The translations under genes and the position numbers were made by a program. The notes beneath the pieces were generated by a model. It was not told where the DNA came from, searched no databases, and saw only the letters and a program-made list of their open reading frames with translations. Positions 1 to 12,094 of a stretch of DNA of 12,094 nucleotides are shown here, one piece after another. How positions within the stretch are numbered: the stretch's first letter is position 1; each line of letters starts with the position of its first letter. The DNA comes from a virus (Duplodnaviria; Heunggongvirae; Uroviricota; Caudoviricetes), in the IMG/VR virus record IMGVR_UViG_2671180338_000009; one strand, written 5' to 3'.

Positions 1-185
1 GATACTGGTTGTCTGGAGATTCAGGGGGCCAGTCTACCACCCCTGATGTCAGGTAGGAAAACACCATATGTTTCTGCTCTGTTTTTCCTTAGAAATAGGC
101 ATCCTTGCTGGAACAAAGCGAGCAGCTATATTGACTCTATGTTGTGAGTGTGTTGATCCGTTCTGAGTTAATACATTTAAGTTGC

Positions 186-1295
186 TCACTCTGTTTCTGC
201 TATCCATTCCGGGATTTTTGCCTCAAGCTCAAGCTGCGTGGTAAAGCCGCTGTTATCAATGGTGTGCTCGGCTTTTGCAATAATCCAGTCCTGATTATCA
301 ATCTCGCTTTTAAATCCTGTTACCGTGCCATGCATTTCGGGGTAGAGTTCTGCACGTCCATGCGCCAGTGTGATGGAGAATGATGCGGCTCCGCGTTGTA
401 GCTGCTGCCACTTTGCCGCCGCTGCACGTCTTGCTGCCTGCTCGTTCTGATAAGTTTTGCGTAACACAAACACGTTGCCTTCCGCACCTTCCATATAGTC
501 GCCTTCCCGGCTGCTGCTTTTCTCCTTTTTTGGTTTTGACGGTTTGCGGCGTTTCACGCTGACTTTTTTCTTTTTCCCGTAATTAAGATCAAGCCAGTAA
601 GCGCGTACCCCCGTATACGCTTCGCGGTCAGCAATGCGGAACTGATGGCGATCGCCGCTGCTGCGTGTGATGGCGAACGAGGGCAACGGCTGGCCCTGTG
701 CGTTCACGCCACCACCGGGCATGATGAATAACAGATTACCGCTTTTTACCGTGGTGATTGCGCCCAGCATTTCCGCCATGCGCGTAAGGAAGGACATGTC
801 GCTTTCTTCGGTCTGGTCGGCGTGGTCGATTTCGATATCCATCAGCATTTCGCTGATTTGCGGTTTCAGACCATACCGATGAGCGATGGCGGATACCACA
901 CGCTCAACGGTCACATCATGCCAGGACACCTCACGTTTAACGTTAAATTCAGCCCGAAAATCTGCGCTTCTGGCTGAAACAGTCAGCCTGTCCGGCGGTC
1001 CTTCGTGAGCGATTTCATCAACAATGTAAGTGCCTTTTTCTGTCAGCGGTTCTCCCTTCCAGCCAATGAGAACCGTCAGGCGCGCGCCCCGTGGCGGTAG
1101 CTGCAACTGACCATCCGCATCATCCAGCGTGATGGTGAGCTGGTCCGCCTCAAATCCCCGGTTGTCGGTCAGTGACAGGCTCATCAGGCGCTCTGCCACG
1201 CCTGACAGCGTTTTACCCTCCGCGAGAATATCAAAATCCGGCATTTTCACGGGGTCTGTGCCCTGACTGAGCAATTGCATGGTGGTGTCGGTCAT
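186..1295 (-). CDS. D: P2 gpD-like tail protein (phage late control gene D family)
   Basis: Minus-strand ORF from ATG at 1293-1295 (MTDTTMQLLSQG...), about 369 aa, with a purine-rich Shine-Dalgarno (GGGAGGGAG, revcomp of 1299-1307) 3 nt upstream. The ORF-track start at 1427 adds an S/P/T/R-rich extension that looks non-coding. Assignment rests on size and on context next to FI-FII-E-T-U; family resemblance is recalled, not searched. Alternative start ATG at 1280. Confidence 0.6.
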   Translation of the reverse strand: MTDTTMQLLSQGTDPVKMPDFDILAEGKTLSGVAERLMSLSLTDNRGFEADQLTITLDDADGQLQLPPRGARLTVLIGWKGEPLTEKGTYIVDEIAHEGPPDRLTVSARSADFRAEFNVKREVSWHDVTVERVVSAIAHRYGLKPQISEMLMDIEIDHADQTEESDMSFLTRMAEMLGAITTVKSGNLLFIMPGGGVNAQGQPLPSFAITRSSGDRHQFRIADREAYTGVRAYWLDLNYGKKKKVSVKRRKPSKPKKEKSSSREGDYMEGAEGNVFVLRKTYQNEQAARRAAAAKWQQLQRGAASFSITLAHGRAELYPEMHGTVTGFKSEIDNQDWIIAKAEHTIDNSGFTTQLELEAKIPEWIAETE

Positions 1296-1452
1296 CTGCT
1301 CCCTCCCTGTGTGGCATGGTCGCATGTGCGTGCGGAGGGGGTTACTGCTTTTTGTTGTCGCCGTGGCGGGAGAATGGCGCAGGGGTGAGATTACGCGCGT
1401 GGTGGGTGATGATTGTTGCCGAATCATTTAACGGATACAAGGGGTTGAAGCT
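1296..1452. promoter_or_regulatory. Divergent intergenic region between D and FI; expected site of the late tail-operon promoter
   Basis: 157-bp non-coding gap between divergent start codons. In P2 the FI operon is driven by an Ogr-activated late promoter, but I could not find a clean TGT-N12-ACA activator site by eye. Confidence 0.3.
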
Positions 1453-2637
1453 ATGAGTGAAACTCGTTTTCATGGTGCCCGTGTTACGGAAAATACCGAC
1501 CTGGTAACAGCGATTAACGATGTTGATTCCAGCGTTATCGGTATCGTGGCAACGGCGGATGATGCGGACGCGGAGCTGTTCCCGCTGAACAAGCCCACAC
1601 TGCTGCCCCGCGTCAATGACGTGCTGGGAAAATGCGGAACAACGGGGACGCTTTATCGTGCGCTTAAGGCCATCGCAGACCAGGTGAGCACAAAGGTGAT
1701 CGTCGTTCGCGTGGCTGAACACAAAGAAGAAGACGGAAAAACGCAGGATCAACTGGTTATCGGTGGTTCTGAATCTGACGGCAGCTATACGGGGATGTAT
1801 GCGCTGCTTGTTGCAGAGCAGGATGAAAGCATCGGATACCGTCCGCGTATTCTGGCCGCGCCGGAGCTGGACACGGAGGCGGTGACAAAATCCCTGTGCG
1901 TGATTGCGGGTAAACTGCGCGCGTTTGTGTATGCCTCATGTCATGACTGTAACACGATGGCTGAGGCAATTACCTACCGCCAGAAATTCAACGAACGTGA
2001 GGTGATGCTCTTATGGCCGGACTTCATCGCCTACAACCCGAAAAGTGGCAAAAACGAAACGTTCCCCGCGCCTGCCTATGCGTGCGGCCTTCGTGCGTAC
2101 ATTGACCATGAGCAGGGCTGGCACAAATCGCTGTCCAACGTTCCGGTTAAAAATGTGCTGGGGATGTCCAGGCATGTGTTCTGGTCGTTGCAGGCCGAAG
2201 ACAGTGATGCCAACAGCCTCAACAACAAAGAAATCACGACCATTATTCGTCGCAACGGGTTCCGCTTCTGGGGCAACCGCACACCGGAAACGAACGCCTA
2301 CATCTTTGAGGTGTATACCCGAACCGCACAGGTGCTGGCTGATTCAATTGCGGAAGCGCAGTTTGAAACCATCGACAGTCCACTGACGCCTGCGAACGTG
2401 AAGGATGTTATCGGTGCCATCAGGGCAAAACTGGATTCACTGGTTACTGCCGGGAAACTGATTGGGGCGTCGTGCTGGTATGACGTGGTGGATAACGGCA
2501 CCACGAATTTACGTCAGGGGCGCGTGCGTATTCGCTACAAATATACGCCTGTTCCCCCGCTGGAAGACATGGAGCTTTACCAGTCGTTTACTGATGAATT
2601 CTTTGGTCCCGCATTTGCGGTGCTGGGAGGTGCCTGA
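1453..2637 (+). CDS. FI: Contractile tail sheath protein (P2 gpFI-like)
   Basis: 394-aa ORF. Conserved blocks recalled from P2 FI: DADAE.FPLNKP, KLRAF, EQGWHK.LSNV, IRR.GFRFWGNRT, YTRTAQV, YKYTPVPPLE. Stop codon overlaps the FII start (TGATG). Confidence 0.9.
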   Translation: MSETRFHGARVTENTDLVTAINDVDSSVIGIVATADDADAELFPLNKPTLLPRVNDVLGKCGTTGTLYRALKAIADQVSTKVIVVRVAEHKEEDGKTQDQLVIGGSESDGSYTGMYALLVAEQDESIGYRPRILAAPELDTEAVTKSLCVIAGKLRAFVYASCHDCNTMAEAITYRQKFNEREVMLLWPDFIAYNPKSGKNETFPAPAYACGLRAYIDHEQGWHKSLSNVPVKNVLGMSRHVFWSLQAEDSDANSLNNKEITTIIRRNGFRFWGNRTPETNAYIFEVYTRTAQVLADSIAEAQFETIDSPLTPANVKDVIGAIRAKLDSLVTAGKLIGASCWYDVVDNGTTNLRQGRVRIRYKYTPVPPLEDMELYQSFTDEFFGPAFAVLGGA

Positions 2638-3149
2638 TGGCTGTACCAAAACATCTTCGCTTTTTTACGCTGTTTGTGGATGGTGAAAACGAAGTGGGTA
2701 AGGTGACGTCCGTCACTCTGCCTAAGCTGACGCGCAAAACCGACAGCTACCGGGGTGGTGGCATGATGGGAGCGGTAAGTATTGATCTCGGCCTGGATGA
2801 CTCCGCGCTTGATGCGAGCTTTGTCATGGGGGGCGCAGTTCGTGAGCTGTTCCTTAAGTATGGCGGCACGATTGACGGTACGCTGCTGCGTTTTGCGGGT
2901 GAATACTACACCGACGCTGAAAGCGACCTGTATGAAGTCGAAATGCGCGGACGTGTGACGGAAATTGATATGGGGGAAGCCAAACAGGGCGAAGCCACAT
3001 CACACACTTACGCCATTAAAAACACCTACTACAAGCTGAGTGTTAACGATCGCCCGTTGTGGGAGATTGACCTGCTGAACTTCATTTACCGGAAGGACGG
3101 CAGGGACATTGTGCCCGATCGCATCCGTTCCGCGCTCGGGCTTGGCTGA
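2637..3149 (+). CDS. FII: Tail tube protein (P2 gpFII-like)
   Basis: 170-aa ORF directly after FI with translational coupling (ATG overlaps the FI stop). Motifs VTLPKLTRK, YRGGGM, DLGLDD and RFAG.Y resemble P2 FII. Confidence 0.9.
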   Translation: MAVPKHLRFFTLFVDGENEVGKVTSVTLPKLTRKTDSYRGGGMMGAVSIDLGLDDSALDASFVMGGAVRELFLKYGGTIDGTLLRFAGEYYTDAESDLYEVEMRGRVTEIDMGEAKQGEATSHTYAIKNTYYKLSVNDRPLWEIDLLNFIYRKDGRDIVPDRIRSALGLG

Positions 3150-3203
3150 TAAGTAATATGCAGGCGGCGCAGTGCGTCGCCTCTGACTGAAAGGAGTTTC
3201 CTG

Positions 3204-3569
3204 ATGAAAGAGACGAAAAACATCGATACCGAAAACACGGTCGTTGCTGACACTGTGAAAGAAACCAGTGAGCGTGGCGTAAAACTTACCCAACCAATTG
3301 AGCGAGGCGGCGAAAAAATCACGTATGTGGAGATCACCGGGGCTATTGAGCAGGCTGGATCTCTGCGAGATTTGTCGCTGTCTGATGTGCTGAATTTGAA
3401 AGCGGAATCCATGTTTACGCTGCTGTCACGCGTGACATCACCGCGACTGGATGAAGTGACGATCAAAAAAATGGCATCCCGTGACTTTATTCAGTTATGT
3501 GTGGTTGCCGTAAATTTTTTGAGCGGTGCGGACTCTGGCGAGAAGAACGAACAGGCGACGGAAGCCTGA
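3204..3569 (+). CDS. E: Tail assembly chaperone gpE (zero-frame product)
   Basis: 121-aa ORF with AAGGAG Shine-Dalgarno at 3191-3196, in the position between tube and tape measure. Contains the TTTTTTG slippery heptamer in frame. Confidence 0.8.
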   Translation: MKETKNIDTENTVVADTVKETSERGVKLTQPIERGGEKITYVEITGAIEQAGSLRDLSLSDVLNLKAESMFTLLSRVTSPRLDEVTIKKMASRDFIQLCVVAVNFLSGADSGEKNEQATEA

Positions 3570-3733
3570 TCACGGTTGTGTGCTTTGAGCACATAGAAGA
3601 CTTTGTGGCGGATATTGCCGCCATTTTTAACTGGTCGCCCGCCGAAATCTTCATGATGACGCCCGGCGAAGTGGTTAGCTGGCGTGAGCGGGCGGCACTT
3701 CGCAGCGGGAATGCAGACAATGAAGACTCTTGA
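3204..3733 (+). CDS. E': Tail assembly chaperone E+E' fusion made by programmed -1 frameshift (join 3204..3521 with 3521..3733)
   Basis: Slippery heptamer T_TTT_TTG at 3515-3521 is in X_XXY_YYZ phase with the E frame. The -1 frame is open from there to TGA at 3731-3733 and matches ORF 3497..3733. This is analogous to P2 E/E' and lambda G/GT. The fusion overlaps the start of T. Confidence 0.7.
3515..3521 (+). other. -1 ribosomal frameshift slippery site (TTTTTTG)
   Basis: Seen directly in the sequence; phase is correct relative to the E reading frame. Confidence 0.7.
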
Positions 3734-6527
3734 TATCCGGGTCGCTTTCAGCGCCGTTGACAGGCTGACCCGGCCTGCCGAAAACGCCCGCCGCCTGATG
3801 GGGCAGTTTGGTGACTCCATCCAGCGAACGCAGGGGGCGATCAAAAATCTCGAGCGTCAGGCGCGTTCATTTGAGCGCGCCCGTGACGCTGTCAGTAAAG
3901 CGGATGCGGGCATCGTGAAAGCACGACGCCAGCTTAACGCCCTTAATCAGTTACAACGCACGGGTACAGTGCTCAGCGAAAAACAACAAAAGCTGATGCA
4001 GCAGTTAAGCACCCGGCTTGAACGCCTGAATGAATCGCGCACACGGGAAATTCAGAAAATGCGGGAACTTGGCGGAGAGCTGAAACGCCACGGCATTTCC
4101 CTGACAGGCAGCGATAACACCATCCAGCAGGCCATCAGACGCACCGGACAATACAACAACCAGCTTGAACGCGAACGGCGGGCGCTTGCGCGTGTAACGC
4201 AGGCGCGTGAGCGGTATTCACGCGCGCAGGAAACAGCGGGAAAACTGAAAACAGGTGGTGCGCTGGCAACAGGTGCGGCGGCAGCGGGCGGCTATGCTGC
4301 CGGGCGTTTTTTGCAGCCCGCTATCGGGTTCGGGAAAGAGATGTCCCGTGTTCAGGCACTGACGCGAATCGATAAAAACAGCCCGCAGTTTAAGGCGCTG
4401 CGTGAGCAGGCGTTAAAACTTGGCTCTGAAACGCAGTTCACCGCAGGCGATGCCGCCAGTGGACAGGCATTTCTTGCAATGGCTGGTTTCACACCGCAGG
4501 CCATTCAGGCTGCGCTTCCCGGCGTGCTGAGCATGGCAACGGCTGGCGGTATGGACCTCGGCGAGACGGCGGATATTGGTTCCAATATCCTGACGCAGTT
4601 CGGCCTCTCTGCTGACCAGATGGACCGGGTCGGTGACACACTTACCGCAGCGTTTACCCGTACCAACACTGACCTTCGCGCACTGGGCGAAACCATGAAA
4701 TATGCAGGTCCGGTGGCGGGTAAGCTGGGAATATCGCTGGAGCAGGCCGCAGCGATGGCGGGCGTGCTGGCGAAGATGGGTATCAGGGGGAGTGATGCAG
4801 GTACAGCGTTGCGTAAAAGCCTGGCCAATCTGTCATCACCGCCAAAGGCAGCGGCAGAAGCACTGAAAGAGCTGGGGGTGTCAGTTGCTGACGCCAAAGG
4901 CAAAATGCGCCCGATGGAGAATGTGCTGGCCGATCTCTATAAAGCCACCCGCAAATACGGGGAGGTTGACCGGGTATCGTTCTTTAAGGACATTGCCGGA
5001 GAAGAGGCTTTCACATCATTTATGGGCCTCGTTGATGCGGCAGGTGACGGCTTCTTAGCCAAACTGAGAAAAGAACTTGAAGGCGCGCGCGGTGAGGCAG
5101 AACGCACGGCAAAGGTTATGGCCAATAACCTTGATGGCAACCTGAAATCACTCGGCAGTGCATGGGAAGGTCTGCGTATTCGCATCAGTGATCTGGTTGA
5201 CGGTCCGCTGCGTTCTGTCACGCAGTGGCTCACGCGGGTTGTCTCAAAGGTGACGGCGCTGGCGCAGGCCCACCCGGCACTGACGCGCCAGTTACTGATA
5301 GCGGGAGGCGCACTGCTGGCGACAACAGCAACGGTTGGTTCGTTGTCTCTGGTTATTGGGGTGCTTCACGGGAAGCTGGCTACGTTGCGTCTCGGTTTTT
5401 CTCTCCTGACCGAATCAATGAATGTTGTCAGGGTTCTGCCTGCATTATGGGGAATGGTGACGGGTTCCGTTTCTTTACTTGGTGGCGCTATCGGGGCGCT
5501 GTTCAGTCCGGTTAGTCTTATCGTGGCTGCGCTTGCCGGAGCTGCCGTTCTTATCTGGAAATACTGGGATCCCATCAGGGCATTTTTTGCCGGGGTGTTC
5601 AGCGGGATTATGGAAAGGCTGACCCCGTTGCGCGAAACCTTTGAACGGTTTGGCCCTGTTTTTGATGTCGTGCGCGATGGGATTATTCAGGTCTTTAACT
5701 GGTTTAAATCGCTGCTGTCACCGATGGAGTCCAGCAAGGAAACGCTGGATAAATGTGCCAGTGCTGGCGAGATATTCGGTAACGTTCTTGGCGGTGCGTT
5801 ACAACTTGTTCTGACACCTGCAAAAATGCTACTGGATACGCTGGCGTGGATACTTGAAAAACTTGGCGTCCTTCCGGATGAAGCGGAAAGGGCGCGCAAG
5901 AAAATCGAAGACGCACAGCGTGCGGCCATTCTTCAGGACAAGGTTGCCTTGCTTCAGGGGGACCTGGCGAAAATCAATCCGCCGAAGCCTGTGGAAAATG
6001 GCAATGGCACCGGAGGTGATAAACCCAAAGACAACAAACCGCTCACAGACAGCAATACCGGGACGCTACGCAGACTCAGCAAAATTGCTGATAACACAGG
6101 TAAGCTGGTTGATGAGACGAAAAAACGCATTGGCCCCGGCGATATTGTCTTTAAGAACCTGCCCCGCGCACTTGCTGTTCGTGGGGAGTGGCAGGAGCGG
6201 AAGATTGCGCAGGTCAGTAAGCCTGCCCCCGCAATTAATATCACACCCGTGGTCCCGGCTCCGCTGCCTCCGGCGCTGGTCCCTGTTGTTGCGGCCAGCT
6301 CCCGCCCGGTGGCGGAGGCCATACGCTCTCCAGTGGCATCAGTTCCTGTAACTTCCCGTAACCGGGAGCCTGTTGCCTCCGGATTTGGTGGTGAAATTCA
6401 TGTTCATCTGCATAACGTTGTTACGCAGAATCCCCGCGAACTGGCGAAACTGGTCGGTGAAATGGTCAGGGCAGAAATGGAACGGCGCGCCCGTGCCGGG
6501 CGTGGCAGTTTTTACGATAAAGATTGA
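3711..6527 (+). CDS. T: Tail tape measure protein (P2 gpT-like)
   Basis: About 938-aa ORF after E/E'. N-terminal half is coiled-coil-like and rich in Q/R/E/L; there is a central Ala/Gly-rich hydrophobic stretch and a C-terminal Pro/Val-rich tail. Start taken as ATG 3711 (alternative ATG 3720); the ORF-track start at 3684 is a GTG extension. Confidence 0.85.
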   Translation: MQTMKTLDIRVAFSAVDRLTRPAENARRLMGQFGDSIQRTQGAIKNLERQARSFERARDAVSKADAGIVKARRQLNALNQLQRTGTVLSEKQQKLMQQLSTRLERLNESRTREIQKMRELGGELKRHGISLTGSDNTIQQAIRRTGQYNNQLERERRALARVTQARERYSRAQETAGKLKTGGALATGAAAAGGYAAGRFLQPAIGFGKEMSRVQALTRIDKNSPQFKALREQALKLGSETQFTAGDAASGQAFLAMAGFTPQAIQAALPGVLSMATAGGMDLGETADIGSNILTQFGLSADQMDRVGDTLTAAFTRTNTDLRALGETMKYAGPVAGKLGISLEQAAAMAGVLAKMGIRGSDAGTALRKSLANLSSPPKAAAEALKELGVSVADAKGKMRPMENVLADLYKATRKYGEVDRVSFFKDIAGEEAFTSFMGLVDAAGDGFLAKLRKELEGARGEAERTAKVMANNLDGNLKSLGSAWEGLRIRISDLVDGPLRSVTQWLTRVVSKVTALAQAHPALTRQLLIAGGALLATTATVGSLSLVIGVLHGKLATLRLGFSLLTESMNVVRVLPALWGMVTGSVSLLGGAIGALFSPVSLIVAALAGAAVLIWKYWDPIRAFFAGVFSGIMERLTPLRETFERFGPVFDVVRDGIIQVFNWFKSLLSPMESSKETLDKCASAGEIFGNVLGGALQLVLTPAKMLLDTLAWILEKLGVLPDEAERARKKIEDAQRAAILQDKVALLQGDLAKINPPKPVENGNGTGGDKPKDNKPLTDSNTGTLRRLSKIADNTGKLVDETKKRIGPGDIVFKNLPRALAVRGEWQERKIAQVSKPAPAINITPVVPAPLPPALVPVVAASSRPVAEAIRSPVASVPVTSRNREPVASGFGGEIHVHLHNVVTQNPRELAKLVGEMVRAEMERRARAGRGSFYDKD

Positions 6528-6539
6528 GGAGTCATGGCC

Positions 6540-7028
6540 ATGATGATGATCTACGGCATGTTTGTTTTTGAGCTGCGTACATTGCCGCATCAGCAGTTAC
6601 AGCAAAACAAAAGCTGGCGGCATGTGAAAAATGAACGCGTTAACCGTTCGGCAAGCTGGCAGTATATCGGTGCAGGTGATGAGCGCATCGTTCTTTCTGG
6701 TGTGCTTTATCCTGAAATTACAGGTGGCGAAGTGTCGCTGTCGCTGCTGACCACGCAGGCGTATACAGGACGACCCTGGCCTCTGATTGATGGCGTCGGG
6801 CAGATTTACGGCATGTATGTCCTGACCGAAACGAATACGACCCGCTCCGAGTTTGATCGCTACGGTAAGGCGAAAAAGATAGAATTTTCACTGACTCTTG
6901 AACGCTGTGATGAGGATTTGCGGGAGCGCCTGCAATCCTCATCGTTCAGCGATATGCTGTCCGGCTTCAAAGATAAGGTAACATCATCCCTTAACAGCGC
7001 GGCCAGTTCAGTTAAAGGGTTGTTCTGA
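6540..7028 (+). CDS. U: Tail protein gpU-like
   Basis: MMMIYGMFVFELRTLP... resembles the P2 gpU N-terminus. GAGGA Shine-Dalgarno at 6526-6530 gives 9-nt spacing to ATG 6540; ATG 6534 is an alternative start. Confidence 0.85.
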   Translation: MMMIYGMFVFELRTLPHQQLQQNKSWRHVKNERVNRSASWQYIGAGDERIVLSGVLYPEITGGEVSLSLLTTQAYTGRPWPLIDGVGQIYGMYVLTETNTTRSEFDRYGKAKKIEFSLTLERCDEDLRERLQSSSFSDMLSGFKDKVTSSLNSAASSVKGLF

Positions 7029-7039
7029 TTTAACACAAA

Positions 7040-7075
7040 AACCGCTAATGGTCAGATTAGCGGTTATTTTGTTTC
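7040..7075. terminator. Bidirectional rho-independent terminator between convergent U and pin
   Basis: 10-bp stem AACCGCTAAT (7040-7049) pairs with ATTAGCGGTT (7056-7065) around a 6-nt loop. It is followed by ATTTTGTTT on the + strand and by TTTGTGTT on the - strand. Confidence 0.5.
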
Positions 7076-7651
7076 CTGACTCTTCTCTATTGTTCCGATT
7101 GATTCTCCTGCGGGGTGGTAACGATAAATCGTCGATATACCAATGCCGTAAATTATTGCCAGTTGTTTTCTGTCGTGCCCGTTTTTGATCAGCCTTGCTA
7201 TTTGCTCATGCTGTTCTTTTGTCAGCTTCGGTCGACGTCCGCCTGTGCGCCCCCGTGCGCGTGCTGCCGCCAGTCCGGCCAGTGTACGTTCAACAATTAA
7301 TTCACGTTCCATTTCAGCCAGGGCACCCATCACGTGGAAGAAAAAACGCCCCATTGGAGAAGATGTATCTATGCTGTCGGTCAGACTGCGAAAATTAATT
7401 CCTCGCTCCCGTAGTTCCCCGACGAGAGAAATCAGATGTTTCATGCTTCGCCCGAGGCGATCCAGTTTCCAGACAACCAGCGTGTCACCTTTTTGAAGGC
7501 GCTTTAAAGCGCGTTTTAATCCCGGTCGGTCTGTCTTTGTCCCGCTTAATTTATCTTCAAATATTTGTTCACATCCTGCACAAACAAGAGCGTTTCGTTG
7601 CAGGTCTGTATTCTGGTCATTTGTTGATACCCTTACATAGCCAATCAGCAC
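7064..7651 (-). CDS. pin: Serine DNA invertase, Hin/Gin/Pin/Cin family
   Basis: N-terminus (M)LIGYVRVSTNDQNTDLQRNAL... with the catalytic Ser in the GYVRVS motif and a C-terminal HTH. It is near-identical over long stretches to Gin/Pin as I recall them. Start taken as GTG at 7649-7651 with GGGAGA Shine-Dalgarno upstream; the ORF-track start at 7675 is also GTG. Confidence 0.85.
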   Translation of the reverse strand: MLIGYVRVSTNDQNTDLQRNALVCAGCEQIFEDKLSGTKTDRPGLKRALKRLQKGDTLVVWKLDRLGRSMKHLISLVGELRERGINFRSLTDSIDTSSPMGRFFFHVMGALAEMERELIVERTLAGLAAARARGRTGGRRPKLTKEQHEQIARLIKNGHDRKQLAIIYGIGISTIYRYHPAGESIGTIEKSQETK

Positions 7652-7705
7652 GCTGAATCTCCCGTCCAAAAGCACAAATCATGCCATGCAGGCCAGAAAC
7701 CGCCA

Positions 7706-7733
7706 TTATCTAAAACCTCGGTTTACAGGAAAC
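7706..7733. other. gix/pix-like invertase crossover site 1
   Basis: TTATCTAAAACCTCGGTTTACAGGAAAC. Its reverse complement TTCCTGTAAACCGAGGTTTTAGATAA differs at one position from the Mu gix sequence as I recall it. The 2-bp core TC is at 7717-7718. It sits 55 bp upstream of the invertase start. Confidence 0.75.
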
Positions 7734-8412
7734 GGTAAATCAGGCTTCTGGCGCATTACAGAAAAACCAGAACGGCGCAGATATTCCGGGGAAAGATACC
7801 TTCACCAAAAATATTGGTGCCTGCCGCGCATATAGCTCATGGCTGAATATTGGTGGCGATAGTCAGGTCTGGACAACCGCGCAATTTATTTCGTGGCTGG
7901 AGAGTCAGGGAGCATTTAACCATCCTTACTGGATGTGCAAAGGCTCATGGGCTTATGCAAATAATAAGGTCATTACAGATACAGGTTGCGGAAATATTTG
8001 TCTTGCAGGTGCTGTGGTGGAAGTTATTGGCACTCGCGGCGCAATGACCATACGCGTTACCACGCCGAGCACGTCCAGCGGTGGCGGAATTACTAACGCT
8101 CAATTCACTTATATTAATCATGGTGATGCTTACGCTCCTGGCTGGCGACGAGACTACAACACGAAAAATCAACAACCTGCATTTGCTTTAGGGCAAACAG
8201 GAAGCACTGTCGGAAATGATAAAGCTGTTGGCTGGAACTGGAATAGCGGGGTCTATAACGCAAACATTGGTGGCGCATCGACATTAATCCTCCACTTCAA
8301 TATGAATACGGGGAGCTGCCCTGCTGTACAGTTCCGCGTGAATTACAGGAACGGCGGTATTTTTTATCGTTCAGCGCGTGATGGTTATGGCTTTGAAGCT
8401 GACTGGTCAGAG
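7714..8412 (+). pseudogene. 5' portion of a variable tail-fibre C-terminal domain, truncated by IS insertion
   Basis: The frame is open from just after TAA 7711-7713 (inside the gix site) to the IS boundary, with no start codon of its own. It begins LGLQETVNQASGALQKNQNG..., typical of an invertible-segment tail-fibre module that is expressed only when fused to the constant part. It ends ...GFEADWSE, and the IS left end supplies the TGA stop at 8413-8415. Confidence 0.7.
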
Positions 8413-8476
8413 TGAGGTAGCCTGAGTTTAACGGACACTCCTTCCTGAAATAGAATGGCATCAGAAGGAGCTAATA

Positions 8477-8779
8477 ATGAGCAGAAAAACCCAACGTTAC
8501 TCTAAAGAGTTCAAAGCCGAAGCTGTCAGAACGGTTCTTGAAAATCAACTTTCGATCAGTGAAGGCGCTTCCCGATTATCTCTTCCTGAAGGCACTTTAG
8601 GACAATGGGTTACCGCCGCCAGAAAAGGGCTCGGTACTCCTGGTTCCCGCACGGTGGCTGAACTGGAATCTGAAATTCTGCAACTGCGTAAGGCGTTAAA
8701 TGAAGCTCGCCTTGAGCGAGATATATTAAAAAAAGCAACAGCGTATTTTGCACAGGAGTCGCTGAAAAATACGCGTTAA
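8477..8779 (+). CDS. IS3-family transposase OrfA (HTH and leucine-zipper part)
   Basis: 100-aa ORF MSRKTQRYSKEFKAEAVRTV... with the slippery run A_AAA_AAA_G at 8728-8735 near its 3' end. Confidence 0.9.
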   Translation: MSRKTQRYSKEFKAEAVRTVLENQLSISEGASRLSLPEGTLGQWVTAARKGLGTPGSRTVAELESEILQLRKALNEARLERDILKKATAYFAQESLKNTR

Positions 8780-9633
8780 TCGAACAATGGCGACAACAAT
8801 TTCCCATTGAAGCGATGTGTCAGGTATTTGGTGTATCCAGGAGCGGTTATTACAACTGGGTACAGCATGAACCCTCAGACAGAAAACAAAGTGATGAGCG
8901 GCTAAAACTGGAGATTAAGGTGGCACATATCCGCACTCGCGAAACATATGGAACCCGGCGGCTCCAGACGGAGCTGGCAGAGAATGGCATCATCGTTGGT
9001 CGTGACCGACTGGCACGTCTTCGTAAGGAGCTAAGGCTACGCTGTAAGCAGAAACGCAAGTTCAGAGCGACTACGAACTCGAACCACAATCTGCCAGTTG
9101 CGCCAAATCTGCTGAACCAGACGTTCGCTCCTACAGCACCAAATCAGGTCTGGGTGGCGGACCTGACGTATGTTGCCACACAGGAGGGATGGTTGTACCT
9201 CGCTGGCATCAAAGATGTTTATACGTGCGAAATTGTCGGCTACGCCATGGGAGAGCGCATGACAAAAGAGCTGACAGGTAAAGCCCTGTTTATGGCGCTC
9301 AGGAGCCAGCGCCCACCTGCCGGGCTAATCCACCACTCTGATCGAGGTTCACAGTACTGCGCATACGATTACCGGGTCATACAGGAGCAGTCTGGTCTGA
9401 AAACATCAATGTCGCGTAAAGGTAACTGTTACGACAACGCTCCGATGGAAAGCTTCTGGGGAACGCTGAAAAATGAGAGCCTGAGCCACTATCGTTTTAA
9501 TAACCGGGATGAAGCCATCTCAGTAATACGGGAATACATTGAGATTTTCTACAATCGTCAGCGTCGTCACTCTCGTCTGGGGAATATCTCCCCGGCAGCC
9601 TTCAGGGAAAAATATCATCAGATGGCTGCTTAA
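8477..9633 (+). CDS. IS3-family transposase OrfAB (-1 frameshift fusion; OrfB DDE catalytic domain 8815..9633)
   Basis: OrfB is in the -1 frame relative to OrfA, and that frame is open from 8734. DDE-type motifs are present (HSDRGSQY, SMSRKGNCYDNAPMESFWGTLKNE, YNRQRRHSRLG). Confidence 0.9.
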
Positions 9634-9676
9634 AAAAAGAACAAATGGTAGTGTCCGCTATTGCCAGTACACCTCA

Positions 9677-10693
9677 ACGGCAGGCAAGTTTCCGTATTTT
9701 ACGGGGAATGATGTCGCCAGCCTGGCAACCCTGACAAAAGTCGGGCGGGATATTCTTGCGAAATCGACCGTTGCTGCCGTTATCGAATACCTCGGTTTAC
9801 AGGAAACGGTAAACAAGGCTGGTAACGCCGTTCAGCGTTCCGGCGATAAAATGACCGGAGAACTGAAAATTGGCACGGTGAATGCGCTGCGAATTTTCAA
9901 TGATACCTTCGGTCTAATTTTCCGTCGTTCAGAAGATTTTCTTCATTTCATTCCGACGGCTGAAGGACAAGGCGAAAACGGTAATATCGGCCCATTAAGG
10001 CCATTCGCTATAAATCTGAGAACAGGTGCTATATCTGTCAGCCACGGGGCCAAAATTAAAGGAGGTCTAGCTATTGGAGCTACTGATAACGCACTGGGTG
10101 AAAACTCCATTGTTCTGGGAGATAACGACACCGGATTTAGGCAAGATGGAGATGGTATTATTAGCTTCTATTCAAATGGTTCGCGCATCGGACATATTGA
10201 TGAGTTAGGATTACATCTTTATAAAGATATTGAATCTAATGGCAGCAATTTTAGATTAAAAAGTAATTACCGCCACCACATTACATTCGCCAACGAAGAC
10301 GGAAGAATTCGTATGTTTTTGTGGAAAGATAACGGTGGTGATGGTGTTCATATTAATAACGGTTCAGATGGTGGTGGTGATTTCATTTTTAAAACAGATG
10401 GGGGATTTGCGCTGGGAAGTGGTGCGCAAGTTGCGTCTAGTGGCGATATTTATGGTTCAGTGTGGGAAAACAACTGGTTAAGCACATGGCTGCATAATCA
10501 TGTCGTTCGGGATATTCGTCTTGGCAGCATTGAATATAAAAACGTATGGCGCGACTACGGCTTTGGCGATGCGTCAGGTTATGTTTTAACAGCCGCAATT
10601 AACAGCAATGCGGATGATATTGTCGACACTGTTGCCAGAAGGCCAATTCAGAAATTGATTGGGGGAATATGGTACAACGTGGGGAGTGTTTAA
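9677..10693 (+). pseudogene. 5'-truncated tail-fibre gene (P2 gpH / Mu S type): 38 codons of constant region, embedded gix site, variable C-terminal domain
   Basis: The frame is open immediately from the IS right end (TAGKFPYFTGNDVASLATLTKVGRDILAKSTVAAVIEYLGLQETVNKAG...) and ends ...[11 protein letters not shown], like the P2 H C-terminus I recall (…GTWYNVAQV). There is no start codon or promoter of its own; the ORF-track start at 9539 lies inside the IS. Confidence 0.75.
9780..9807. other. gix/pix-like invertase crossover site 2 (inside tail-fibre coding sequence)
   Basis: TTATCGAATACCTCGGTTTACAGGAAAC. Sequence 9790-9813 is identical over 24 bp to 7716-7739 around site 1. It is on the same strand and in the same orientation as site 1 in the present arrangement. 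Confidence 0.65.
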
Positions 10694-10694
10694 G

Positions 10695-11222
10695 ATGATG
10701 CACCTGAAAAATATTAAGGCCGGGAATCCGAAAACACCGGAACAATACCAGCTAACTAAAAAAGCGGGCGTGGTATGGCTCTTTTGCGAAGATGGCAAAA
10801 ACTGGTATGAGGAACAAAAGAATTTTCAGCCAGACACCATAAAAATTGCTTACGATGAGAACAACATCATCGTTGCTGTCAGTAAAGACGTTTCAACTAT
10901 TAATCCTGAAGGGCTAAGCATAGTTGAAGTTCCTGATATTACGGCAAATCGTCACGCAGACAATAACGGAAAATGGATGTTTCTGGATGGTAAAGTAGTA
11001 AAGAGGGAATATACAGAACAGGAACTGCAACAACAGGCCGAATCACAAAAGGCCGCATTGCTTTCCGAAGCTGAATCAGTCATCCAGCCGCTGGAACGCG
11101 CTGTCAGGCTGAATATGGCGACGGACGAGGAACGCACACGACTGGAAGCATGGGAACGCTACAGTGTTCTGGTCAGCCGTGTGGATACGGCAAAGCCAGA
11201 ATGGCCACAAAAGCCTGAGTAA
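10695..11222 (+). CDS. tfa: Tail-fibre assembly chaperone (Tfa / P2 gpG-like), partner of the + strand variable domain
   Basis: Starts [23 protein letters not shown]... at ATG 10695, 1 nt after the tail-fibre stop. Its N-terminal ~45 aa are shared with the convergent paralogue and the C-terminus diverges. Confidence 0.85.
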
Positions 11223-11227
11223 AAATT

Positions 11228-11247
11228 AAGGCCCGATATCGGGCCTT
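11228..11247. terminator. Perfect 20-bp palindrome; bidirectional terminator between convergent tfa genes
   Basis: AAGGCCCGATATCGGGCCTT lies 5 bp after the tfa stop and 3 bp after the opposite tfa stop, flanked by A-rich and T-rich sequence. Confidence 0.55.
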
Positions 11248-11250
11248 GTT

Positions 11251-11784
11251 TCATTCTGGTTGTTCGGGAAACGTTACTGGCAGGCTGGAGGTGTCTGTGG
11301 ATTCGACCTTCTGCGCATAGAGCATCCACTCGGTTAATTTTTGTTTATTCTCGTCGGAAATAATGCCCAGCCGTAGCTGTGAGTCCCATAGCTGGGTTTT
11401 ATCCCTGACGAGCTGTAGCAGGCTTTGCTTTTCATTTTCCGCTTGTTGCCTCTGCTCTTCCCCGGTATAAGTTCGCTTTATCACTACGCCATCTTTGAAC
11501 ATCCATTTACCTGAAATATCAGCCCGGCGATTTGCTGTAATATCAGGAACCTCAACGACGCTTGCGCCTTCCGGATTAATTGCTGAAACATCCTTTTCAA
11601 TACAAATAATAACGCCGTTGTGGTCATAGACCATTTTCAACGTATCAGGCTGAAAGTTCTTTTGTTCCTCATACCAGTTTTTCCCATCCTCTGTATAAAG
11701 CCATTTGATGTTAAATTGTTTCGTTAGCTGGTATTGCTCTTTTGTTTCAGGATTACCAGCAGAAATGTTTTTTAAGTGCATCAT
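11251..11784 (-). CDS. tfa: Tail-fibre assembly chaperone, alternative copy (Tfa'), partner of the - strand variable domain
   Basis: Starts MMHLKNISAGNPETKEQYQLTKQ... and is convergent with the + strand tfa. Its start lies 2 nt downstream of the stop of the - strand tail-fibre fragment. Confidence 0.85.
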   Translation of the reverse strand: MMHLKNISAGNPETKEQYQLTKQFNIKWLYTEDGKNWYEEQKNFQPDTLKMVYDHNGVIICIEKDVSAINPEGASVVEVPDITANRRADISGKWMFKDGVVIKRTYTGEEQRQQAENEKQSLLQLVRDKTQLWDSQLRLGIISDENKQKLTEWMLYAQKVESTDTSSLPVTFPEQPE

Positions 11785-11786
11785 CG

Positions 11787-12053
11787 TTAAATACTCCCCG
11801 CGTTATACCACGTCCCATTAATGCAATACTGAATTGGCCTTGCCTGAGTTGTATCAATTAGTTCATCTCTGTTTGAGTTAACGGAACCGGTAACAACATA
11901 ACCTGACCTGTCAGACCATCCGGGACCATTCCATGTCTGAACAGATAACAGACCACCAAGGCGAATACCTGTAATAAACCTTGAGTTACATTCTGCCTGC
12001 GTATATGCACCAACATCTCCCGCAGAGGGTTTGCGGGTTGTGGTGTAAAACTC
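11787..12053 (-). pseudogene. 3' portion of the variable tail-fibre C-terminal domain (the other half of 7714..8412)
   Basis: Hand translation of the - strand frame gives EFYTTTRKPSAGDVGAYTQAECNSRFITGIRLGGLLSVQTWNGPGWSDRSGYVVTGSVNSNRDELIDTTQARPIQYCINGTWYNAGSI, then a stop at 11787-11789. The frame is open right up to the IS boundary at 12053 and has no start codon; it is absent from the ORF track for that reason. Confidence 0.7.
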
Positions 12054-12094
12054 TGAGGTGTACTGGCAATAGCGGACACTACCATTTGTTCTTT
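12054..12094 (-). mobile_element. Terminal 41 bp (right-end inverted repeat) of a second, inverted IS600-like copy, cut by the window edge
   Basis: 12054-12094 is the exact reverse complement of 9636-9676, the right end of the complete IS. Identity stops precisely at the IS terminus. Confidence 0.75.

Follow-up and report, generated by a model that had tools for sequence, protein, structure and literature searches.

Comparison with intact relatives identifies this region as a tail-fibre switch of the Mu G-segment type in a P2/P88-like prophage of Shigella sonnei, in which one of the variable ends, SvA, is interrupted by a copy of IS600 that is accompanied by a 3-bp target duplication. The two halves of SvA lie on opposite strands of a scaffold that contains a gap between them. 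We favor, with a probability of about 0.6, a plain insertion of IS600, the opposite-strand placement being a product of assembly. The window, that is, the whole stretch of DNA analyzed here, is coextensive with CXBJ01000144.1, a publicly available S. sonnei contig of 12,094 bp that was scaffolded as a draft from short reads.

The N-terminal 233 codons of SvA, an S'-type variable domain truncated by IS600, occupy positions 7714-8412 on the plus strand and are 100% identical to the corresponding sequences of S. sonnei 53G and E. coli FDAARGOS_943; the C-terminal 88 codons and the stop codon, assigned by translation and by identity to intact homologues, lie at 11787-12053 on the minus strand. The earlier note on this DNA had proposed that these are pieces of a single tail-fibre domain, each set against an IS600 end, and this proposal is borne out: both fragments translate without interruption and keep the phase at their boundaries, and the form joined through a single GAG (963 nt) is contiguous and 100% identical in NZ_CP065615.1 (E. 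coli FDAARGOS_943). In S. sonnei 53G, SvA is likewise intact and contiguous at 100% identity, with the two halves overlapping by exactly the 3-nt GAG. A lack of intact homologues with contiguous halves, which the earlier note named as grounds for rejecting the proposal, is thereby ruled out. The joined sequence is 95-98% identical to the S'-type tail-fibre ends of Mu, D108 and P88 (95% in DNA to Mu S'), and the gp37_C domain extends across the junction in the joined protein. By these comparisons, one variable domain, homologous to S' of phage Mu, is divided between the segments 7714-8412 (+) and 12053-11787 (-).

The GAG codon is present at both SvA junctions, as the left copy at 8410-8412 (+) and as the right copy at 12051-12053 (-), which reads CTC as its complement and adjoins the inverted right end of IS600. 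Where these junctions fall, the intact allele carries GAG only once. Given that the halves joined via one GAG match the uninterrupted gene at 100%, IS600 inserted in SvA with its usual 3-bp duplication, in agreement with the single insertion event that had been suggested previously. Six draft assemblies, all of one accession series, have the insertion at this site; none of the finished genomes examined has it. When finished E. coli genomes were searched for the N-terminal half of SvA joined to the IS600 left end, none contained it, the one full-coverage match being a different two-piece arrangement, and exact-protein look-ups with the truncated SvA ORFs (160 aa and 132 aa), the read-out ORF at 9539-10693 and the mosaic chaperone described below returned only draft contigs of at most 47 kb, or no match.

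The inserted element is a complete IS600 (IS3 family) at 8413-9676 on the plus strand, 1264 bp in length, which aligns over its full extent, with 99.9% identity, to copies annotated as 'IS3-like element IS600'. It has terminal inverted repeats that start with TGAGG at both ends, as read directly. The frames orfA (8477-8779) and orfB (8815-9633) encode, in this order, an HTH domain and a DDE/rve-type domain (HTH_Tnp_1 in orfA; rve, rve_2 and rve_3 in orfB, according to Pfam); the run of seven A at 8728-8734 is the likely -1 frameshift site, and a fused 385-aa product is on record. Copies of IS600 in finished genomes are flanked by the 3-bp target duplications AAC and GGC. A perfect inverted copy of the right end of the element, reported previously at the window edge, is indeed found at 12054-12094 on the minus strand (41/41 match to 9636-9676); the second IS600 copy is visible for these 41 nt only, the contig stopping inside the repeat. 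The sole variable position among the IS600 copies, IS nt 126, is N in one sister scaffold and, with 41 nt of the second copy at hand, is uninformative for the assignment of copies to flanks.

In nearly every respect, the insertion resembles those in other Shigella genomes: the same element at 99.9% identity, TGAGG termini, orfA and orfB with the A-run, a 3-bp duplication and an inactivated gene. What sets it apart is only where it lies, at a GAG codon within a variable tail-fibre end of the S' type in a prophage. Shigella chromosomes hold hundreds of gene-inactivating IS copies (PMC7373316), and an IS600 insertion that disables one of two alternative tail-fibre tips is a known, ordinary form of decay of a Shigella prophage. 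The biological weight of the case is accordingly small, that of one more IS600 insertion in a decaying prophage.

The switch into which IS600 inserted follows the layout of the G segment of Mu with its invertase Gin, as well as that of the C segment of P1/P7 (Cin) and the P segment of e14 (Pin), consisting of the invertase, a crossover site, Sv' and U', followed by U, Sv, a crossover site and Sc on the other strand. Two alternative receptor-binding ends stand head to head, each with its own assembly chaperone. A serine DNA invertase of the Gin/Cin/Pin type (195 aa; Resolvase, E=1.3e-50; HTH_7, E=1.6e-13), apparently intact, is encoded at 7064-7651 on the minus strand, the same position that gin occupies beside the Mu G segment. 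The crossover site on the invertase side (7706-7731, +), which we take to be gix-like by comparison with the gix consensus, is repeated in direct orientation, as scaffolded, at 9780-9805 (+). The two sites share an identical core of 25 nt (7715-7739 and 9789-9813) and lie at the constant/variable boundary of the fibre gene, the Mu G-segment boundary mapping to position 7718 of the window. Unlike the Mu G segment, the switch is carried by a P2/P88-like rather than a Mu-like prophage, one of its variable ends is broken by IS600, and its crossover sites, being direct as scaffolded, would not support inversion. This direct orientation depends on an order of pieces that rests on a single N at 9677; the sites are inverted in all intact relatives and become inverted here if the right-hand piece is flipped. 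S. sonnei assemblies with identical flanks include both the state with SvA by the invertase and the state with SvC by the invertase.

The window differs from CXBJ01000144.1 at one position only: at 9677 the public record gives N, and the window displays A. Because the record has N there, the join between the right end of IS600 and position 9678 is a scaffold gap, not sequence. Moreover, the intact genes have G before CGGCAGG, in place of the A of the window, and the equivalent piece in sister scaffold L010 continues through the point that corresponds to 9678 for 116 nt more, so that no insertion site is defined at 9677/9678. The hybrid IS600 copy, flanked by GAG on the left and ACG on the right, that the earlier note described finds no support in the sequence: the right flank begins at N, the record reading N-CG, and ACG is not real sequence. 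Similarly, the description of the SvA halves as lying 3.6 kb apart on opposite strands holds for the scaffold, whereas as a statement on the genome it hangs on the one-N join.

The piece to the right of the gap, 9678-12053, combines sequences that are identical to two different loci. There are two prophages to be considered, a P2-like one near pheST-ihfA and a lambdoid one near trp with a near-identical switch. The first 112 nt of the right-hand piece (9678-9789, +) are a tail-fibre constant-region end of the lambdoid Stf type, 100% identical to the trp-near locus of finished S. sonnei genomes versus 97.3% identical to the local H gene. They are followed by the alternative variable domain SvB (9790-10693, +; gp37_trimer), also 100% identical to the trp-linked lambdoid locus, and by a mosaic tail-fibre assembly gene (10695-11222, +; Caudo_TAP) that is of the trp-locus type in its 5' part and of the local-prophage type from 11027, as mapped by mismatches. 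The last gene, UA (11251-11784, -; Caudo_TAP), is 100% identical to 53G and, by its position in the Mu layout, is the homologue of Mu U' cognate to SvA. Over its length, the right-hand piece agrees exactly with the trp-linked locus as far as 11119-11352, and from 11027 onward it agrees exactly with the local prophage. Because the locus switch lies inside a stretch of 93-326 nt that is common to both loci, the right-hand piece may be an assembly chimera.

Conceivably, recombination between IS600 copies or between the near-identical chaperone genes fused the tail-fibre switches of the two prophages, in which case both the mosaic, with its break at 11027-11352, and the IS link would be genuine. 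The same mosaic right-hand piece is common to L004, L007 and L010, and L021 contains an apparently reciprocal UD-UC adjacency. However, every one of the supporting contigs is a short-read draft, the finished genomes compared contain the parental arrangements only and no mosaic piece, and the shared stretch suffices for an assembler to switch loci. Furthermore, in L003 the parental version occurs alongside the mosaic one and a segment is duplicated, which suggests an artefact. We therefore regard such a fusion as quite unlikely.

Under the plain insertion that we prefer, IS600 would have entered the S'-type end SvA at the GAG codon with a duplication of 3 bp, leaving this version of the fibre truncated; the real order would be the N-terminal half of SvA, IS600, the C-terminal half and UA. 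The right-hand piece would have been attached across the unsequenced gap, and the placement of the halves on opposite strands would have arisen from the threading of a collapsed multi-copy IS and shared repeats during assembly. When 9678-12053 is flipped, it overlaps the IS end perfectly over 41 nt, and we infer that both SvA junctions belong to the same IS600 copy. With the piece flipped and IS600 and one GAG removed, 1-9793 aligns as one to 53G, whereas the scaffolded order produces broken alignments; the restoration of a single collinear alignment makes plain insertion the simplest reading.

Several observations count against this reading. If the sole contact of the right-hand piece with IS600 were at the C-terminal half of SvA, a read-pair scaffolder should have oriented the piece accordingly; instead, it linked the IS600 right end to the constant-region side. 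The UB/UA adjacency also occurs, with 0 mismatches over 1300 nt, in L007, which was assembled in a project unrelated to this one; the mosaic might therefore be genuine. In sister scaffolds L003 and L010, IS600 right ends are linked to pieces of the Stf constant region, which suggests that a real IS600 copy lies upstream of an Stf-type constant region somewhere in these genomes. Finally, long-read data from S. sonnei have confirmed inversions that have IS4- or IS3-family elements at their borders (PMC12795559). That the scaffold is right as it stands, with a 2.4-kb cassette bounded by inverted IS600 copies and either inverted through homologous recombination or put together from parts of two prophages, seems to us doubtful, though a reading to be weighed seriously. 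This cassette contains one crossover site, one variable end and two chaperone genes; if the scaffold were true, the invertase sites would be direct and the Gin-type switch frozen, with a RecA-dependent inversion nested in a site-specific one.

The first of these two routes is the one that had been proposed before, an inversion of 9677-12053 by recombination between two inverted IS copies after the insertion at GAG. The second IS600 copy would have lain in the constant region, and the SvA halves would truly lie on opposite strands. The order of the scaffold itself speaks for this possibility, as do the right ends of IS600 that bound the segment on either side, provided that the N join is trusted, the additional joins of this type in L003 and L010, and the long-read cases in S. 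sonnei, which follow the same pattern. In the present case, by contrast, an N takes the place of one junction and the second copy is cut off by the contig end after 41 nt, without read-through. The copies that bound the segment are thus one complete element and one fragment, the N-CG flank marks no insertion site, and the constant-region end is of the type of the other prophage. In addition, short reads cannot separate the two orientations of a segment bounded by inverted 1.26-kb repeats. A search for swapped target duplications recovered the GAG pair only, the partner of the N-CG flank being absent from the window and from all loci fetched. Given the gap at 9677, the 97.3% identity to the local H gene, the mosaic switch and the unorientable segment, the inversion of 9677-12053 is possible but unlikely, and the sequence does not support it as claimed. 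Intramolecular replicative transposition, as the source of both an inversion and a second copy, was set aside: it would have the same outcome here as recombination, and it is atypical for IS3-family elements.

The sister scaffolds from the same accession series show how an arrangement of this kind might be assembled. They contain single Ns exactly at IS600 ends and, in one case, at a polymorphic position within the IS; behind one such N there are at least 42 hidden nt. One sister scaffold duplicates the segment consisting of UA and the C-terminal half of SvA, another carries a chimeric constant-region end, and the assemblies L002, L011 and L012 break at the IS. The element is longer than typical short-read fragment sizes, and the likely assembly pipeline is called greedy and prone to false joins by its own authors (PMC5320598). 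The single Ns where a multi-copy IS ends or varies, and the duplicated or chimeric segments at shared repeats, resemble artefacts of the Velvet/SSPACE/GapFiller type at collapsed repeats, with the difference that the pipeline is not documented for this assembly; its use for CXBJ01000144.1 is likely, judging from the accession series and the pattern. The practical lesson outweighs the biological one: an N in the source record that was displayed as a base, together with a join through a collapsed multi-copy IS, had the look of a rearrangement with a tidy mechanism. Claims on the order of pieces around repeats in draft contigs require the gap positions of the record, and ideally long reads, before a mechanism is considered.

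The left part of the window is a P2/P88-like tail module (186-7028), recognized by its Pfam families and 100% identical to S. sonnei 53G (HE616528.1). It consists of gpD (186-1295, -) followed by the sheath, tube, gpE/E', tape measure and gpU genes (1453-7028, +), in the same order as in intact relatives. The position of the minus-strand gpD upstream of the sheath gene was considered as another rearrangement and ruled out, this being the normal order in the phage group. The first 34 nt are the end of a multi-copy IS at the contig boundary, presumably IS2 to judge from its terminal sequence, with prophage homology beginning at about position 35: bases 35-185 match the prophage, and the whole query matches 6488 records. 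In S. sonnei 53G (L015, 4998-6226), ORFs of an IS3-family transposase lie directly upstream of the equivalent region.

Positions 1-7063 of the window match Shigella sonnei 53G (HE616528.1) at 100% identity; in that genome the stretch encodes the tail module of a P2/P88-like prophage adjoining pheST-ihfA. Downstream of this module lies a serine invertase gene (7064-7651, minus strand; Resolvase and HTH_7 domains), which appears intact, followed by a tail-fibre switch of the Mu G-segment type. Intact relatives carry, in sequence, the invertase, a crossover site, SvA (the S'-type variable tail-fibre end) and UA (its assembly chaperone); these are followed on the opposite strand by another chaperone, another variable end, the other crossover site and the constant portion of the tail-fibre gene H. 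The S' DNA of Mu is 95% identical to SvA, with the annotated G-segment boundary at window position 7718, and two flip states with identical flanks were found among S. sonnei assemblies. GC-rich hairpins in the gap between gpU and the invertase gene (7032-7073) and between the convergent chaperone genes (11228-11247) look like candidate terminators. The window starts inside the end of a multi-copy IS (1-34), IS2-like by its terminal sequence; in 53G an IS3-family element occupies this place, upstream of gpD. Thus, the left and right contig ends are repeat-induced breaks.

The insertion of IS600 into SvA with duplication of a GAG codon is solid. The complete element (8413-9676; 1264 bp; 99.9% identity to annotated copies) has TGAGG termini and orfA and orfB domains. 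The terminal GAG of one half of the gene, SvA-N (7714-8412), abuts its left end, and the initial GAG of the other, SvA-C (12053-11787, minus strand), abuts an IS600 right end present as an inverted, perfect repeat (12054-12094). Fused through a single GAG, the halves form 963 nt that are unbroken and 100% identical in NZ_CP065615.1; in 53G, SvA-N and SvA-C overlap by exactly 3 nt, and IS600 copies in finished genomes have 3-bp duplications (AAC, GGC). The gp37_C match in the joined protein crosses the break. The proposal of the earlier note that a single domain was split by IS600 with a shared GAG is thus borne out, the search it suggested for an intact homologue with contiguous halves having led to NZ_CP065615.1 and 53G. 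The insertion allele is common to six draft assemblies and occurs in no finished genome among those reachable.

The window corresponds in full to the public contig CXBJ01000144.1 (draft assembly GCA_001257935.1), from which it differs solely at 9677, A in the window and N in the record; the join between the IS600 right end and 9678 is therefore a scaffold gap. Consequently, ACG, which the earlier note had taken as the right flank of a hybrid element left by recombination between inverted IS copies, begins with an N and does not have the status of a sequenced flank; the base preceding CGGCAGG in intact genes is G. Of that model, the single insertion with GAG duplication stands, and the inversion of 9677-12053 falls back on a gap character, on which the striking part of the finding depends; herein lies the chief value of the comparison. 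Scaffolds of the same series carry single Ns precisely at IS600 ends, and one carries an N at IS position 126, which varies between T and C among copies of this clade (window 8538; sister scaffold L003, 8434; L010, 3737); in finished genomes, the difference from the window copy lies instead at nt 980. One sister N conceals at least 42 nt visible in another sister scaffold, and in three further sister assemblies the sequence breaks off roughly 30 nt inside the IS. These features are consistent with greedy scaffolding and gap filling, in which extension through a collapsed repeat halts where reads disagree. False joins are cautioned against by the authors of a pipeline behind 299 public S. sonnei assemblies (PMC5320598), which, to judge from the accession series and the pattern of Ns, probably also produced GCA_001257935.1.

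The piece to the right of the gap is itself mosaic. Identity of 100% to a different locus, a lambdoid prophage near trp, extends over the constant-region end (9678-9789), the second crossover site, the alternative variable end SvB (9790-10693) and the 5' portion of the chaperone gene that follows. This locus, present in four finished S. sonnei genomes, comprises a methyltransferase gene, an invertase remnant, SvB, UB, UD, SvD, the tail-fibre gene Stf and Lom; against the local H gene, the 112 nt of 9678-9789 show only 97.3% identity. Positions 11027-12053, in turn, are identical to the local prophage. The chaperone gene (10695-11222) is of the trp-linked type in its 5' part and of the local type in its 3' part, with the break in 11027-11352; in one strain (L008), the allele at the trp locus agrees with the window without a mismatch up to 11352. 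Depending on the allele, 93 to 326 identical nt are shared at the switch point, a length that would let a short-read assembler pass from one locus to the other; read length averaged 59 bp in a published S. sonnei collection (PMC7373316), to which this isolate may or may not belong. The composition of the gene points to gene conversion between the switches of the two prophages, to chimeric assembly, or to a combination of these. What locus switching in assembly can yield is illustrated by L003, in which the constant-region end is itself chimeric and a duplicated block of UA and SvA-C is joined to the chaperone gene in its parental as well as its mosaic form.

Inverting 9678-12053 produces a perfect 41-nt overlap with the IS end; once IS600 and one GAG are taken out, positions 1-9793 of the resulting sequence align to 53G in one piece, compared with broken alignments for the scaffolded order. 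The simplest arrangement is accordingly a plain insertion, in the order SvA-N, IS600, SvA-C, UA, to which we assign a probability of about 0.6. The estimate is no higher because a read-pair scaffolder is normally expected to orient a piece correctly, IS600 right ends are likewise linked to Stf constant-region pieces in L003 and L010, the mosaic recurs in L007, which was assembled in an unrelated project, and IS-flanked inversions are known in S. sonnei (PMC12795559). These points lend some weight to a real rearrangement. If an inverted IS600 did lie upstream of the constant-region end, right ends would bound the cassette at each side, so that its orientation could not be determined with short reads, and both isomers might even coexist. 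In two assemblies from another project (L021, FUCS01000052.1; L024, FUFY01000052.1), lambdoid J, Lom and Stf and P2-like U, T, tube and sheath genes lie on a single contig of 28-29 kb, connected via switch modules with single Ns at the joins, which reflect an extensive rearrangement between prophages or else an artefact of the same type.

Given a plain insertion, the switch would still be able to flip, and one state would give a fibre ending after SvA residue 233, without the C-terminal 87 residues; were the scaffolded order real, the crossover sites would lie in direct orientation, leaving the switch frozen. All the components are of known kinds: the switch is Gin-type, the SvA insertion is an ordinary IS600 insertion with a 3-bp duplication, and IS-driven decay and rearrangement are familiar in Shigella, whose chromosomes carry 229-348 IS copies each (PMC7373316).

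Finished S. sonnei genomes contain an extra IS600 within the 26-bp invertase-side crossover site (L031, ~5771-7035, CP026836.1; L035, 10121-11384, CP180280.1), with the junction TCTAAAAC / IS / AACCTCGG and an AAC duplication equivalent to window 7714-7716. This insertion, independent of the one in SvA, affects the same switch and would be expected to inactivate the site, locking the switch. Furthermore, other S. sonnei drafts have IS600 junctions at two other positions in the UA gene (L006, 4200-5463; L024, 13456-13746), and this small region is either a recurrent IS600 target or a recurrent assembly trap.
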